Under the pieces are notes generated by a model. That model was not told the DNA's origin. It did not search any database and saw nothing but the letters and a program-made list of their open reading frames with translations. Shown piece after piece: positions 12,984 to 18,547 of a stretch of 24,505 bases of DNA. Origin of the DNA: Candidatus Hermodarchaeota archaeon (GTDB lineage: Archaea; Asgardarchaeota; Lokiarchaeia; Sigyniarchaeales; SOKP01); the NCBI GenBank assembly GCA_048885535.1, contig JBHLLO010000041.1, positions 1 through 24,505 of the forward strand, written 5' to 3'. Within the stretch, counting starts at the first letter, position 1. The number at the start of each line of letters is the position of its first letter. Position numbers and translations under genes: made by a program.

Positions 12984-14402
12984 TTAGAGAGATTTTAAGG
13001 CTTCTATTAGAGATTTTTCAAATAGTTCGCATACCTTATCAGTTTCTTCGTCATTTATAACAAGTGGGGGTTTTATTTTTAAAGTGTTTTGGATGTAATA
13101 GCCCGCTGTAGACATAATCTGCATCTGTTCACCAAAAAAGATTCCATTTTTCCACCCAATGTGAATCATCTTGTTTAATAACTCATTATGAGGTTCACGA
13201 GATTCAACATCTTTTATAAACTCAACTCCAATAAATAACCCAGGTCCCCTGATATCACCAATCTGTGGAAGTTCTTCTGAGAGATCCTTGATAAATGAGG
13301 AGATTTTACTACCCTGCTTTGCAGCATTTTCAGGTATCTTATGTTTTAGTAAAATTTCAATGTTTATTAAACATGAGGCCATTGCTAATGGAGGTGAGGA
13401 AAAAGTTGAATGTTCTTCAAATTCTGTCAATCCACGTAATTTAGGTGAAGCTATAGTAATTCCTATTGGAACTCCCGCTGCTGCAGCTTTAGTTAACGTC
13501 ATAATATCTGGAGAAACGTCTTTATTATAAGTTGATTCATACCATTCCGTTGCAAACATTTTTCCAGTACGTCCAAATCCAGTTTGAGCCTCATCATATA
13601 TCAATAAAATGTTATTCTTTTTACATAATTCTTTTAAACCCATTAAAAAATCTACTGGAGCAGGAATTTGCCCTCCTGGACCTTGCATTGGTTCAATGAT
13701 ACACCCAATTGGAGTGCCGTTTGCATACATCTCTATTTTTTGGCGAACCATTTCTAAACATTCAAGGTTACATGATTTATCGCGTAATCCCCTATAACCT
13801 TCTTGATAATTCCAGGGGCATCGATAACAATATGGATAAAAAACTCGCATCCAGTGTTCACGTCCAAAACCAGAAAACCTCATGGGTAAACGCTGAGAAG
13901 CACCCATCATTACTAAACTTGAACCGTGATAAGCCCTTCTAAAAACGATAAACTGATCTCCTCTCTTATTATTGATCATTGCTACTCTCAATGAACACTC
14001 AAGAGCCCACCCACCTCCGGAGTTGTTAACACTCACCCTACCACCTTTTAATTGACCAGGGGCGATCTCTGCTATCTTATTAGTGAATCTTATTCTAACT
14101 GGAGTTAAAAAATAGGACCATGTATGAGTATTTATTTGAGATTGCAAACCTAAAGTATAACTAATATCTGGATTGTTATGTCCTAAATTGAATACCCAAG
14201 CCTGAGATGTACAGTCTAAAATCTCACGACCTTCTTTAGTTTTGAAATATATCGATCCTGGTTCAGTACTCCCCGTAACTATATGCTCTCGAACGTTTAC
14301 TAAGAGATGATTTTTGCTACATTTATTAATTTCATCTTCAGTTAAAGGAGCTGTTAATAAATTGTGTATCTCTTCTTCTGTTAAATACTTCGGTTTATGC
14401 AT
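12984..14402 (-). CDS. Class III PLP-dependent aminotransferase (GabT/ArgD-like)
   Basis: NLGHNNP, AYHGSS, IEPMQGPGG, DEAQTGFGRTG, PDIMTLTK (PLP lysine), RGPGLFIGVE, IKPPL. Confidence 0.93.
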   Translation of the reverse strand: MHKPKYLTEEEIHNLLTAPLTEDEINKCSKNHLLVNVREHIVTGSTEPGSIYFKTKEGREILDCTSQAWVFNLGHNNPDISYTLGLQSQINTHTWSYFLTPVRIRFTNKIAEIAPGQLKGGRVSVNNSGGGWALECSLRVAMINNKRGDQFIVFRRAYHGSSLVMMGASQRLPMRFSGFGREHWMRVFYPYCYRCPWNYQEGYRGLRDKSCNLECLEMVRQKIEMYANGTPIGCIIEPMQGPGGQIPAPVDFLMGLKELCKKNNILLIYDEAQTGFGRTGKMFATEWYESTYNKDVSPDIMTLTKAAAAGVPIGITIASPKLRGLTEFEEHSTFSSPPLAMASCLINIEILLKHKIPENAAKQGSKISSFIKDLSEELPQIGDIRGPGLFIGVEFIKDVESREPHNELLNKMIHIGWKNGIFFGEQMQIMSTAGYYIQNTLKIKPPLVINDEETDKVCELFEKSLIEALKSL

Positions 14403-14680
14403 TTAACTTCAACAAATTTGTAATGTAAAATTTTTTTTAAAAAATATATAGAACTTCATGATATATAATACTTCTCTGAGGTAATTTTATACAGGAAAAA
14501 GGAGAATCTCGAGTTTTAAATTTATAAAATCAAAGATTTAATGTGAAAACAATGAATTTTTATAAAGAAAAATCAAAAAGGAGATAATTTTTTAAATAGG
14601 TATTTTTAAAAGATTGGTTTTAGAATGTATTTATTGGAATTAGGAGTACTAAATAATAATTATACATGGTGGTCATAAAT

Positions 14681-14878
14681 ATGAAAAAAAGTCTTAAAAG
14701 TATAAAATCCAGAATATATGATGATTCGGTTCTAATAAAAGCAAATGAATTGAATGAACTTGATCATTATAAAAAGGAATTAATAGAAGAGGAAAAAGAT
14801 TGGGATGAAGAATTTAAAGAAGAAGAAGAAAGGGGATACAATGATTATAATTGGCATGAAGGAGATTATGATTCTTAG
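14681..14878 (+). CDS. Small, very acidic hypothetical protein
   Basis: ORF 14666-14878 (likely start MKKSLK at 14681); basic N-terminus, D/E-rich C-terminus; its stop overlaps the convergent gene's stop (14875-14878). Confidence 0.6.
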   Translation: MKKSLKSIKSRIYDDSVLIKANELNELDHYKKELIEEEKDWDEEFKEEEERGYNDYNWHEGDYDS

Positions 14879-16140
14879 ATTTTGGAAGCAACAAAATCAA
14901 TAATGTCCATTATTTTTATCTTATTTTCAGCTGCCTGATTCATCTCTCTAAGGGAGTCATTTAAATTCCCGATGCAAAACGGACAACTGGTTAACAGTAC
15001 TTGGGCACCAGAGTCAATTGCTTCTTGAACCCTTTCCATTGATATTTTAATTGCCAAGTCAGAAAACTGGCTTTTTACCCCTCCCCCTGCTCCGCAACAC
15101 CATGCATTTTTTCTATTTCTTTTCATTTCAATTAGCTCTATTCCAGGGATCATTTTTATTACTTCTCTTGGAACATCATATAAATTCATATGGCGCCCTA
15201 AGTGACAAGGATCATGATATGTGACCTTAACTTTATCTCCAAATTCGCTTTTAAATGCAATTTGTTTGTTTCTAAGCAAGTCTATTAATATCTCTGTTAT
15301 ATGTTTTACTTCAAATGGCAATTTATCACCAATTATTTCGGGATAATCTTTTTTCCATGTTCGATAACATCCCGCACAGGCAGTAAATAAAGTTTTAGTC
15401 CCCTTACTTTTAAAGACATTAACATTATGCTTAATTAATTCAGATAAAGATTTTTCGTCACCAATCCGTAGGGCTATAGATCCACAGCACCATTCATCCC
15501 TAGATATGGCAATATTTTTTCCTGCTGTTGTTAAAATCTTCATCATATTCTTCAAAGTAGTTACTTGTCTCAAGGGCATTGTACACCCACCAAAAAACAT
15601 CAATTCTCCAGCTCCCTTAAGTTCAGGAAATTGATTTATCCAGTCGAGTTTTTTCTTTTTCTCCTCTCCATATGGATTCCTCATCTTATCTTCATTCATA
15701 TATTCAAGCAAACTATCATGTCGTACAAGAGGTGCAAAGCCAGCTTCGACTAAATCTTTCCTTAATGCCTCCCATACTTTAACATGATCAATCCAGTTAC
15801 AGGTAGGAAGTATTATGTTTTCATTTTGAGTCATATGGCAAACTTCAGTGCAATTTTTACACTCACTACACTGGTAAACCCATTCAGCCAATTCCTTACT
15901 CAGAGGAATCTGTCCCTGTAGAATGCTTTTAAGAACATTCATTCTACCTCGCGAAAAGTAGAGTTCGAATCCTTCATCTTCCTTTGCTTCTTTAACGGGA
16001 CAAGTTAAATATCTTCCAACGGCAGTTCTAATGGCATAACCACAATCTCCGCATCCCATCTGCACACTTTAGTAAATCTAAAGTCTTATACATGAGAAGA
16101 TTGCTTTCCATTCTTTCCTTAAATATTTTAATTCACTCAT
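14875..16140 (-). CDS. (Fe-S)-binding oxidoreductase, GlcF/HdrD-like (2x[4Fe-4S] plus two CCG domains), interrupted by a 30-nt candidate intron; ~411 aa if spliced
   Basis: In-frame ATG at 16140 gives MSELKYLRKEWKAIFSCI-RL*IY*SVQM-GCGDCGYA...TCPV. Second cluster CSECKNCTEVC. CCG domains FFGGC...WCCG...TACAGC and YHDPCHLGR...WCCGAGGG...TSCPFC. Confidence 0.85.
16058..16087 (-). other. Candidate 30-nt bulge-helix-bulge-like mRNA intron (boundaries uncertain by a few nt)
   Basis: Contains in-frame TAG (16078-16080) and TAA (16069-16071) and a perfect 7-bp hairpin ACTTTAG-ATTTA-CTAAAGT; removal restores CxxCxxC. Confidence 0.65.
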
Positions 16141-16157
16141 TTTGTTTAATATTAATA

Positions 16158-17003
16158 TTATTTTTTTATATTAACCAACTTTTGACTAATCTCCCACAGT
16201 TTATATTGTAGAGATTCTTCATATGTTAATTTATGTGATTTTACAGGTTTACAATTCTTGAAATATTTGCCAGTGACTCCTTCTACTTCAGGTGATGAAG
16301 CGAGATATACTGACGTTTTTGCTGCTTCTTCTGGGCTTTTTATCATTGGCGACATTAAGGATAAAAAGATTTTGGAAATTTTTTTGGTTGGAATTGTCAT
16401 TTTTGTTCTCGCATGACCAGGATGAAGTGCATTAACAGTTACACCTGTCCCATTTAATCTACGAGCTAATTCATAAGTGAATAATACTAGCGCAAATTTA
16501 GCATTTGCATATGCTTTTTGAGAAGAATATTTTTTTTCAGACATTAAATCATCAAAATTTATTTTAAAATAAAGATGAATATTAGATGACACATTTATAA
16601 TTCGGGAAGGGGCGCTGCTCTTAATTATATTAAGTAATAGATTTGTTAGTAAGAAATGTGCCAAATAATCGATGGCAAAAGTACACTCATATCCGTCTTC
16701 AGTCTCTTTTCGAGTTCTATTGAACACTCCTGCATTGTTTATTAGAACATGTAAGCATTCATATTTTTGTATATATTCTTTAGCTACATTTTCTACTGAT
16801 TTTAAAGATGCGAGGTCACCAATTAAAAGATCGATATTTTGATTTTTTGTTTTTTCCTTTATTTCAGTTTGGACAAATTCTGTTTTCTCTTGATTTCGAC
16901 ATATCATTACTATATAATATCCCATCCTTGCTAGTTGTAAGGCTGTTTCTTTACCAATCCCTGAAGTAGCTCCTGTGATTACACAAATCTTATTCCTATT
17001 CAT
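16158..17003 (-). CDS. Short-chain dehydrogenase/reductase (retinol-DH/WWOX-like subfamily)
   Basis: VITGATSGIG, LINNAG, RIINVSS, YANAK (YxxxK), NALHPG. Start placed at MNRNK (17003). Confidence 0.93.
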   Translation of the reverse strand: MNRNKICVITGATSGIGKETALQLARMGYYIVMICRNQEKTEFVQTEIKEKTKNQNIDLLIGDLASLKSVENVAKEYIQKYECLHVLINNAGVFNRTRKETEDGYECTFAIDYLAHFLLTNLLLNIIKSSAPSRIINVSSNIHLYFKINFDDLMSEKKYSSQKAYANAKFALVLFTYELARRLNGTGVTVNALHPGHARTKMTIPTKKISKIFLSLMSPMIKSPEEAAKTSVYLASSPEVEGVTGKYFKNCKPVKSHKLTYEESLQYKLWEISQKLVNIKK

Positions 17004-17035
17004 GATTCTTGTATTATTTATATTAATTATCACCT

Positions 17036-18547
17036 TTAACCCCAAAAGTTAAATTTTCCTCTACTTAAAATCATATTCGGATCTAATAATTTTTTAATAG
17101 ATTTCATTAAGTTGTAATAATCTTCTGAATAGGCTCCAATATCAACCATCAAACGAGACATATAATCTCCCATCATATACCATTGCACTCCATATTTAGT
17201 AACCCTTTCTAATAATGATCTCCATAGCTTAAAATTTAACTCTTCAATAATTTTGTGTATTTTTCCATCGTAATAACTCCAAAAACTTGTAAATCCGCAA
17301 GTTATTTCTACATTGTTTCCATCTATTAACATTATTGGTCCACTTCCTGATATTGGGCGAATATTCGTGATTTCAAATATTTTTCTCATATCCGGATCGT
17401 GTTCTATGTCCCATTGGTCAATATCATCTAAAATTTTAGGATAAATATCGATTGGCGCGAAACATTCTGCGGATAAAGGCTGCATTGTTGGAAAAATACC
17501 CCACAAATTATGATAGAATTGCCAATGACCTTGTTCGGTATAATGCCACTTTGCAATATTCCCATCAGAAATTTCAGGACCTAGCGGTTCAGTTTTGTTG
17601 TTTTCCATAATTCTGTCTAACTTTTTAACTTCTTGCTTTAATTCTTCTTCTGAATTGGCTTCAATCGTATAGAAAATTATTCCTCTTTTTTTCTTTAAGT
17701 GGTCCCATAGTGGCATAAATTTTTCTTGTGCTCCAATTCTTAGAAAAAGATCCATCATATACATTAGATCATAGACATCTATCCCTTTTTGTCTAACCTG
17801 CTTCATAATATTGGCAGAGATTTCCCTTTCCTTCCTTGGGAGTTGAAACGATTTGTAGGCAGCATATTCTGGTTTAGGAAATATTTGTAAAGAAATTTTT
17901 GTTTTCACGCCAAAAATGCCGTTATCTCCACAAAATAGCCCAGCTAAGTCAGGCCCATTTCCAAATCTATTAAAAGGGTATTTTGAATGCTTATTTGCTT
18001 GAGACCCTGTCTCGATAATTTCACCAGTAGGTAGAACGACCTCTAATGAAACTAATTGATTAGTACAAGCGCCATACTTGGCACAACCTCCTCCTCCAAC
18101 AGAATGATGAGAAATTCCTCCTCCCACTGAGGCAGACAATCCAGATCCAGGTCCCATGCATCCTGTGTAAAGTCCATATTGGCATAAATATTCATTTAAT
18201 TTTCCCCATGAAATACCAGCTTCAACAGTAACTATTAAATTATCATGATCTAATGTAATTACATTATTCATCCTTTTCATATCTAAAACAATACCATTGT
18301 TTCCAATCGGCTTACTACCGCCAAATTCACATATTCCAGCCCCACGGGGTATAACAGGAATATTTTCTTCATTCGCAACTTTTAAAATTTCTGAGATTTC
18401 TTTAGAATCTTTAGGTCTTATTACTACATCAGGTATACCTTGCAGTACTAAGTCTACATTTCTCGAATAAGCATGTCTTACGTAAATACTATTTGAGATA
18501 TTTTTTGCAGAAACAATTTTTTCCAATTTTTGATATATTTCTGTCAT
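17036..18547 (-). CDS. FAD-binding oxidoreductase, GlcD/D-lactate dehydrogenase (VAO/PCMH) family
   Basis: PDVVIRP, IPRGAG, IVLDMKRMN, VEAG, SVGG, LEVVLPTGE, GPDLAGLFCGDNGIFGV, C-terminal LDPNMIL..GK. Confidence 0.9.
   Translation of the reverse strand: MTEIYQKLEKIVSAKNISNSIYVRHAYSRNVDLVLQGIPDVVIRPKDSKEISEILKVANEENIPVIPRGAGICEFGGSKPIGNNGIVLDMKRMNNVITLDHDNLIVTVEAGISWGKLNEYLCQYGLYTGCMGPGSGLSASVGGGISHHSVGGGGCAKYGACTNQLVSLEVVLPTGEIIETGSQANKHSKYPFNRFGNGPDLAGLFCGDNGIFGVKTKISLQIFPKPEYAAYKSFQLPRKEREISANIMKQVRQKGIDVYDLMYMMDLFLRIGAQEKFMPLWDHLKKKRGIIFYTIEANSEEELKQEVKKLDRIMENNKTEPLGPEISDGNIAKWHYTEQGHWQFYHNLWGIFPTMQPLSAECFAPIDIYPKILDDIDQWDIEHDPDMRKIFEITNIRPISGSGPIMLIDGNNVEITCGFTSFWSYYDGKIHKIIEELNFKLWRSLLERVTKYGVQWYMMGDYMSRLMVDIGAYSEDYYNLMKSIKKLLDPNMILSRGKFNFWG

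Follow-up and report, generated by a model that had tools for sequence, protein, structure and literature searches.

A probable bulge-helix-bulge intron in an mRNA that encodes an Asgard iron-sulfur protein

Results

The interrupted gene

The stretch of DNA analyzed here (the window) comprises 24,505 nucleotides (nt), positions 1 to 24,505 of contig JBHLLO010000041.1 in assembly GCA_048885535.1, which is assigned to Candidatus Hermodarchaeota archaeon. Our subject is a gene for an Fe-S protein on the reverse (-) strand of this window, whose 5' end is interrupted by 30 nt that very probably represent a spliced bulge-helix-bulge (BHB) intron. The stop codon of a short-chain dehydrogenase (SDR) gene (open reading frame, ORF, 16158..17045, -) is followed after 17 nt by ATG 16140 (-), which opens a frame of 17 codons with Cys as the last one, MSELKYLRKEWKAIFSC. 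Behind it, ten in-frame codons (16089..16060, -) read IRL*IY*SVQ, with TAG and TAA included, and MGCGDCGYAIR...CP reads in frame directly 3' of them; the part after the insert consists of MGCGDCGYAIRTAVGRYLTCP and then a frame of 392 codons with two CCG domains (-). Unspliced translation from ATG 16140 ends after 20 codons. The listed ORF start, GTG 16065, misses the first Cys of the CxxCxxC...CP motif, and this first ferredoxin-type motif is complete only once the insert is removed. An earlier note, made from the sequence alone, had described ATG 16140, its distance of 17 nt from the SDR stop and the Cys missed by GTG 16065, and all three lie where it placed them.

Because AU is duplicated at both borders of the insert, removal of 16089-16060, 16088-16059 or 16087-16058 leads to the same CMGC product. 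With the last of these cuts, the 5' exon (16088..16140, -) consists of the 17 codons from ATG 16140 plus AU, the first two bases of codon 18. The predicted 30-nt BHB intron (16058..16087, -) carries both in-frame stops, and the 3' exon (14875..16057, -) starts with the G of codon 18, continues with GCGDCG and the two CCG domains, and includes the stop codon. The predicted exon-exon junction peptide of the spliced product is AIFSCMGCGDCGYAIR. The host protein matches Pfam CCG in two stretches (117 bits) and Fer4_8 under the cut-off (21.8 bits); its NCBIfam matches (TfrB, GlcF, GlpC) are all under the cut-offs. From these domains and motifs, the gene is predicted to encode an HdrD/GlcF-like Fe-S protein with N-terminal Cys motifs of the 2x[4Fe-4S] type and two CCG domains.

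Orthologs and the predicted splice junction

A protein search returned close relatives with 69-82% identity, and their depositor names (Promethearchaeota, Lokiarchaeota, Heimdallarchaeota, Thorarchaeota and Hodarchaeota) fit the Asgard origin supposed in the earlier note. These relatives fall into two length classes: proteins of about 411 amino acids (aa) have the N-terminus MSELKHLKEEWKAIFSC-MGCGDCG, and those of 393-400 aa start with MGCGDC, MQKGCGDC, LQKGCGDC and similar sequences. Out of 400 genomes of the phylum that were searched, 102 possess an ortholog at E<=1e-120; 94 of these, the window genome included, belong to the window's family. The DNA around the gene start was compared, and the site is readable in 91 loci. 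Outside this set are L007, which is truncated, and the distant orthologs L049, L050, L097 and L100-L103, in which the motif is absent from the fetched stretch.

At 63 of the 91 loci the gene is intronless, and the two Cys codons are separated by precisely six bases (ATG NNN at 62 loci, ATC GGC at one). These orthologs read ...AIFSC↓MGCGDCG (arrows mark junctions here and cuts in the RNA motifs below), which is the product of removing 16087..16058, and the uninterrupted AIFSC↓MGCGDC defines the junction. The 30-nt deletion proposed earlier, which removes both stops and restores CxxCGDC, matches these intronless orthologs; from the three cuts that had been considered, the comparative data pick 16058-16087 (CMGC) over those resulting in CIGC and CIRC.

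The other 28 loci carry an insert at the identical site. They represent 27 genomes and 8 genera of one family, and a 29th intron-bearing locus was found later at a contig end. Inserts measure 29 nt (2 loci), 30 nt (6, window included), 31 nt (13), 34 nt (1) or 56-61 nt (6). In 21 of these 28 loci the insert length is indivisible by three, and the exons stand in different frames; these frame-shifting lengths rule out stop-codon read-through or an altered genetic code. In all 28 intron-bearing loci the 5' exon of 17 codons is intact; it begins with a start codon and is free of stops. If two bases are kept after Cys17 and the 3' exon starts four bases before the next Cys, the product is ...SC-M-G/N-CGDCG in every case (28/28). 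Because the insert occupies the same site in 28 of 91 loci and its structure covaries, it far exceeds what chance would produce.

RNA structure and covariation

Read from 5' to 3', the inserts and their borders share a common RNA anatomy: UC, NUGY, a first bulge AU↓A, a hairpin stem of about 9 base pairs (bp) that closes a 5-nt loop, GCRN, a second bulge AN↓G, and GG. NUGY, which comprises the last base of a Ser codon and the Cys codon, pairs with GCRN; otherwise the insert sequences are very divergent. Two 3-nt bulges separated by 4 bp, as predicted here, are the archaeal BHB motif, for which the part of the literature cited here places cleavage between the second and third bulge residues (PMC2738675).

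In the window, the 5' strand of the central helix H (AUGU, 16090..16093, -) belongs to the exon and is made up of the last base of Ser codon 16 plus the whole of Cys codon 17; it pairs with 16063..16060, the intronic 3' strand (GCAG, 16060..16063, -), in a helix that RNAalifold also finds on an ungapped six-sequence alignment. The 5' bulge AU↓A (16087..16089, -) has its predicted cut at 16088/16087, and its three columns are invariant in alignment A1. The 3' bulge AU↓G (16057..16059, -), with a predicted cut at 16058/16057, takes the forms AA↓G, AU↓G, UU↓G and AG↓G in relatives. The inner helix h' (16064..16086, -) joins 16086-16078 with 16072-16064 around a 5-nt loop (16077-16073) and contains a G.G mismatch at 16085/16065; the 7-bp hairpin ACUUUAG/CUAAAGU noticed earlier is the core of this 9-bp stem. 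In the outer helix h, UC of Ser codon 16 (16094..16095, -) pairs with GG of the Gly codon (16055..16056, -).

Among the 22 short forms, all four central pairs are present in 21; the sole exception is the window, in which the helix AUGU/GCAG has three out of four pairs, with A.G at pair 1, between the bulges AUA and AUG. The earlier note had read these bulges, the cut after the second nucleotide and the A-G mismatch in the same way. Its caveat that the motif is relaxed is appropriate for the window and does not extend to the other 21 loci. Across loci, the first central pair is U-A, C-G, U-G, G-U or G-C.

In an end-anchored MAFFT alignment, 92.0% of the cells are paired and 54 double-sided changes occur, compared with 75.0% in shuffles (none of 500 attains the 92.0%) and 38-49% with slid partners; since the compared genomes are kin, the shuffle statistics overstate independence, and the other counts are non-independent as well. 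An alignment fitted by a covariance model, and hence biased towards structure, reaches 97.4% paired cells versus 37-50% when partners are slid, and compensatory changes affect 10 of its 15 pairs. In the inner stem h', each of the nine model pairs has such changes across loci. Independently of the model, RNAalifold predicts the same two helices from an ungapped alignment of six sequences. Single-sequence minimum-free-energy folds often come without the 4-bp helix, i.e. thermodynamics alone is insufficient to find the motif. A 13-bp helix between the exons, which the earlier note had also proposed, can be drawn in the window, but over the 22 loci it is 64.7% paired versus 64.1% in shuffled or slid controls, and we do not retain it.

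An insert with these properties could also be skipped by the ribosome, i.e. by programmed translational bypassing of the gene 60 type with take-off at or near Cys17, the hairpin skipped and landing before GGN. As in phage T4 gene 60, whose ORF contains a small gap that is left untranslated and carries a hairpin as well as a stop codon, a stop codon and a stable hairpin are found just behind the would-be take-off site, and the insert length is free of a multiple-of-three rule. The gene 60 bypass requires matched take-off and landing codons. In the 28 inserts, however, the triplet before GGN is AAG, AUG, UUG, AGG or CUG, unlike Cys17 and codon 18, and no matching take-off and landing codons are conserved. 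Furthermore, the BHB here extends across the exon-intron borders; bypassing predicts neither a covarying 4-bp exon-intron helix between 3-nt bulges nor the second BHB that is nested in the long inserts described below. We regard bypassing as extremely unlikely.

DNA evidence, strain variation and selection

DNA contigs from four runs (four samples of one study, of which run X1 is possibly the window's own source) span the insert site without a gap and keep the 30 nt; therefore the insert is not an assembly artifact, as the earlier note had considered it might be. A strain variant in run X4 differs at 16058 and 16065, both within the insert, and its 5' exon is unchanged; two of its three differences in 378 nt are thus located in the 30-nt intron. 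In this variant the 3' bulge AU↓G becomes AA↓G, the G.G mismatch becomes G.A, ATG 16059 is changed to AAG, and GTG 16065 to ATG.

The 3' exon has dN/dS values (ratio of nonsynonymous to synonymous substitution rates) of 0.025-0.128 in eight pairs, intron-intron pairs included, and the values for the window's 3' exon against three relatives are 0.025-0.095. Judged from these ratios, the intron-bearing genes are not pseudogenes and evolve under purifying selection; relaxed selection on the downstream ORF, which the earlier note had named as a sign of a pseudogenizing insertion, is not what we found. The 5' exon is coding-like in both allele types: its entropies at the three codon positions are 0.63/0.18/0.78 in intron-bearing and 0.74/0.21/0.96 in intronless genes. 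Ser16 is encoded by TCN in all 28 intron alleles, compared with 34 TCN and 18 AGY among 53 intronless ones, a bias which indicates that these exon bases are constrained by the RNA structure.

Alternatively, the insert might never be removed; the protein would then start at GTG 16065 or ATG 16059 and be devoid of the first Cys, or the gene would be dead, with the 17-codon frame as a leftover. Gene callers do annotate a downstream start (P0001 with 394 aa, and many homologs of 393-400 aa), and the BHB of the window has two mismatches. Against this explanation, the 5' exon is intact with its start codon in 28 of 28 loci and shows the coding-type pattern at codon positions, while the in-frame codons before GCGDCG vary among loci. 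The X4 variant loses ATG 16059, though its GTG 16065 becomes ATG. The purifying selection on the 3' ORF speaks against a dead gene, and the covariation of exon base -6 with an intron base is not expected of a dead leftover. A retained insert is thus very unlikely.

A small mobile DNA element that is merely tolerated (similar to a miniature inverted-repeat transposable element, with AT target duplication), or an assembly artifact, would be a further explanation. AT is indeed repeated at both borders, and presence and absence of the insert are scattered, with at least 9-10 changes among the 48 rows of a quick tree (see below). However, four assemblies contain the insert, and neither the codon nor the base within it at which the inserts are positioned differs among the 28 loci. 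The covarying pairs join bases of host exon and insert, not the ends of an element; the choice of TCN in the host is tied to the presence of the intron, and the host genes remain under selection. In addition, model R2 (see below) found no convincing copies between genes, or at unrelated sites that lack a BHB geometry, in 135 genomes of the family. This explanation we consider very unlikely. All three alternatives together retain a small share of the probability.

Splicing machinery and proposed pathway

The window's own genome (3.09 Mb in 112 contigs, 91.6% complete) encodes two EndA paralogs of 200 and 205 aa (TIGR00324 with 100.8 and 88.8 bits; cut-off 59.6) as well as RtcB (E 1.6e-168). The two EndA ORFs are located at C6:30345-30947 and C1:55886-56503 (-), and RtcB is encoded on contig C2. 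The best solved relatives of the first EndA paralog are 3p1z_B, 3ajv_B, 2cv8_A and 2zyz_B, each of them named 'tRNA-splicing endonuclease'; 3p1z, 3ajv and 2zyz are heterotetrameric crenarchaeal enzymes. By our reading, one EndA paralog apparently lacks the catalytic His. With its intron search, ARAGORN lists 34 predicted tRNA genes for this genome, 23 of them with an intron and several at non-canonical positions, although these calls are approximate. For Asgard archaea, the cited part of one study describes an (alpha-beta)2 EndA with an L1 loop that is linked to a broad substrate range (PMC5829648).

According to the model we favor, AUGU (the last base of Ser16 plus Cys17) would pair in the transcript with GCAG, which is located close to the insert's 3' end, and the resulting 4-bp helix between the bulges AU↓A and AU↓G would stack on the inner intron hairpin and on the short exon-exon helix UC/GG. 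A two-subunit EndA would cut after the second nucleotide of each bulge; RtcB would ligate the exons, and the 30-nt intron would be released. Ligation would rebuild codon 18 (AU+G = Met) and the first motif CxxCxxC...CP; without splicing, any downstream start would yield a protein that is devoid of the first cluster ligand.

Several points weigh against this model, in addition to the kinship of the compared genomes. A search of sequencing runs for the stretch returned four DNA runs, all from one study, and no RNA run, so that we infer splicing from DNA. The outer helix h (UC/GG) has only 2-3 bp and is the weak side of the motif. The window's motif is the least canonical one of the 22 short forms, with A.G as the first central pair and a G.G mismatch within h', and its minimum-free-energy fold pairs UCUCAU with AUGGGA and contains no BHB. 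Model R2 yielded no second convincing copy in the own genome (150 of about 6000 candidates scored). Two crude scans of the own genome showed no excess over decoys. The first, for long ORFs interrupted by a BHB geometry, had no power (680 matches versus 634-656 at four decoy offsets). The second and stricter one, with an in-frame Cys codon required in the helix, gave 121 matches versus 264-274 for decoys, and recovered the window intron and no other that was convincing by eye; neither genome-wide scan demonstrates that further introns are absent.

The data show how the insert is built, that this anatomy is conserved and covaries, that removal of the insert restores the gene exactly, that both exons are under selection and that the enzymes are encoded. 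The comparative data thus strongly support the BHB-intron interpretation of the earlier note, and 16087..16058 (-) is very probably a spliced BHB intron in the mRNA of the HdrD/GlcF-like Fe-S protein, with cleavage and ligation of this mRNA predicted from the sequence. The additional idea of that note that the intron serves as a regulatory switch is unsupported, as we found evidence neither for nor against it.

On the reverse strand of the window (12984-18547), the Fe-S gene is accompanied by a GlcD-like FAD-binding oxidase gene (17036-18547), the SDR gene (16158-17045) and a class-III aminotransferase gene (12984-14402). Many relatives have the FAD oxidase gene immediately upstream of the Fe-S gene, without an SDR gene between them. 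In the window, no tRNA (ARAGORN) and no Rfam family was found.

Putative twin introns and another host gene

Each of the six long inserts (56-61 nt; L009, L011, L016, L023, L035 and L058) consists of two adjacent BHB introns. Their first 29-30 nt are an ordinary intron copy that ends with GCRG AA↓A, and the following 26-31 nt constitute the second BHB. In its central helix the same GCRG is used again, now as the 5' strand, and is paired with CUGC or CCGC just 5' of the 3' exon. This second helix covaries (GCAG/CUGC, GCGG/CCGC and GCGG/CUGC) and has four out of four pairs in five of the six long forms; the outer and inner helices of the second BHB comprise up to 8 and 10 bp, respectively. The two motifs are mutually exclusive, because they have one strand and one cleavage site in common. 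If the 3' intron is removed first, a normal first intron is regenerated; if the 5' intron is removed first, the helix is unable to form (x||x). The arrangement therefore suggests a fixed order of removal, with the 3' intron first. The database proteins P0008 and P0009 start with translated introns of the long form.

Model R2, which was built from 24 copies, was run on the own genome, where its only convincing match was the window intron (16055..16095, E 1.4e-13), and on the 135 genomes of the family. In the latter it returned all known loci and also G203:C31. At G203:C31:18954-18996 (-; L154/L162), and thus outside the window, a 32-nt insert follows ...CNGCAFC in the gene of a 4Fe-4S ferredoxin-like protein of 185 aa, which is HydN/DmsB-like with all matches under the cut-offs. 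The motif is strong, with the central helix CUGU/GCAG, an outer helix of 6 bp and an inner helix of 10 bp. Among the matches listed (L163-L191), all uninterrupted orthologs read CNGC[AG][FY]C[IV]RAC[DE]FG, which equals the spliced product of G203; as in the first host gene, intron removal rebuilds a Cys motif, here CxxCxxCxxxC. The same ferredoxin site is interrupted in three further genomes (G183, G217 and G182; loci L192, L193 and L194), so that the 32-nt intron after CNGC[AG]FC is present in four genomes in total, and across genomes the motif at this first site has six of six outer and three to four of four central pairs.

A second site in the ferredoxin gene, CTGCE↓TCESVC, is interrupted in L192 (G183:C14), L193 (G217:C29) and L197 (G165:C53), in two genomes by 30 nt that are in frame and free of stops and in one by 34 nt with a frameshift. 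The central helix again involves the Cys codon (NUGC/GCRY); because the flanking helices are interrupted, we classify this site as a weaker intron candidate. Best identities between the introns of the two host genes are 0.75-0.78, whereas the best values after shuffling average 0.63-0.64 and reach at most 0.75; being at the edge of chance, these identities are no more than suggestive of sequence homology.

Weak R2 matches at C97:1281-1316 of the own genome (E 0.35) and at G197:C18, G263:C64, G178:C295 and G234:C27 were judged to be chance matches or non-coding; the one in G197:C18 is located within an uninterrupted ORF that splicing would disrupt.

Gain and loss of introns

The history of the intron was examined with a quick maximum-likelihood tree (IQ-TREE) of 48 genes, from which L007 (contig end) and L119 (partial) were left out. 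Presence and absence of the intron are scattered on this tree, and the well-supported branches force at least 9-10 changes. Sister pairs that differ by a clean indel are L018/L021 (with 97% identical proteins), L031/L034, L010/L012 and L006/window. The few further substitutions between L018 and L021 are concentrated around the intron position (Ser AGC/TCG, Cys TGC/TGT, and AAT/GGC), which may reflect a small conversion tract or a structural constraint that was relaxed after loss. The simplest reading of the tree is frequent precise loss or exchange of alleles, and gain and loss are not distinguishable in these data.

The introns of L021 (genus g12) and L055 (genus g1) are alike, sharing the GGUUCUAGA stem and the bulge UU↓G, and their host genes belong to different clades; this likeness hints at an exchange of an intron-bearing segment or at an old polymorphism. 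At L158 (G183:C23:138264-138304, -), a second FAD-oxidase gene is followed by an orphan copy of the 5' exon and the first intron. A CGDCG exon is missing downstream of this copy, which appears to be left over from the rearrangement of a second gene pair.

Discussion

The closest known analog of the intron described here is that of the cbf5 pre-mRNA in Crenarchaeota (Desulfurococcales and Sulfolobales), which is cut by a hetero-oligomeric EndA; in the part of the 2009 account cited here, cbf5 of Crenarchaeota is the only protein-coding gene with confirmed BHB introns (PMC2738675). Both systems comprise a short BHB intron inside a gene that codes for a protein, with cleavage between the second and third bulge residues, a patchy distribution with gain and loss, a host with a two-subunit EndA, and a gene that is mis-annotated by gene callers. 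They differ in that cbf5 is a crenarchaeal pseudouridine synthase gene, whereas the host gene here is an HdrD/GlcF-like Fe-S gene of Asgard archaea; most copies here have a canonical BHB, while most cbf5 motifs are called unconventional in that source (PMC2738675). Tandem double introns and a second host gene are features of the present system, and the cbf5 intron has been proven by cDNA, whereas the intron of the Fe-S gene is predicted from DNA. Membership in the cbf5 intron family, defined by the cbf5 gene and its catalytic Asp codon, was rejected, as the host is a CCG-domain Fe-S protein; cbf5 serves as an analog only.

Asgard tRNA genes are heavily interrupted, and in the part of the respective preprint cited here, protein-coding genes are mentioned only as neighbors (10.64898/2026.10.13.758758). 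BHB introns of tRNA and rRNA have the same succession of 3-nt bulge, 4-bp helix and 3-nt bulge, and EndA and RtcB are encoded in the genome studied here. The substrate here, however, would be an mRNA; the exon halves of the motif are coding Ser and Cys codons, and no tRNA-like body is found nearby.

In HAC1/XBP1 splicing, the endonuclease IRE1 splices an mRNA, with RtcB as the ligase in animals, and the reaction is a stress-regulated switch. Likenesses to our model are a very small mRNA intron, a protein endonuclease acting at structured sites, an RtcB-type ligase, and a changed reading frame. In contrast, the endonuclease is a different one, twin stem-loops take the place of the BHB, and HAC1/XBP1 splicing is stress-regulated. 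The action of RtcB in XBP-1 splicing is described in the cited part of PMC8718801.

A full-text literature search, which covered few subscription journals, yielded no publication that describes BHB introns in protein-coding genes of Asgard archaea. Relative to the literature found, we have not seen described either tandem twin introns or the repeated placement of introns at Cys codons of Fe-S motifs. In Asgard genomes, genes interrupted in this way will escape gene callers, and many database entries are truncated (starting with MGCGDC or MQKGCGDC) or begin with a translated intron (P0008 and P0009).

The structure of the intron is conserved over at least 28 genomes from 8 genera, and relatives of it occur in a second gene. 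The mRNA of the Fe-S gene very probably needs to be spliced before translation, and Asgard archaea would then depend on splicing to express metabolic proteins, beyond its role in tRNA. The locus is a testable system for the origin and loss of introns, since sister alleles that are 97% identical differ by a clean 30-nt indel; the predicted order of removal in twin introns is likewise open to test, as is the bearing of mRNA introns of the endonuclease-ligase type on intron history before eukaryotes. A more far-reaching proposal, which we regard as possible and yet doubtful, is that a family of BHB mini-introns of 29-34 nt is being spread and lost at UGY Cys codons of Fe-S motifs, in at least two genes and at three sites within one Asgard family, including ordered twin introns and gain or loss between near-identical alleles. 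Should this proposal be true, mRNA introns would be actively mobile in the closest prokaryotic relatives of eukaryotes, for example by reverse EndA/RtcB reactions plus reverse transcription or by recombination between alleles.

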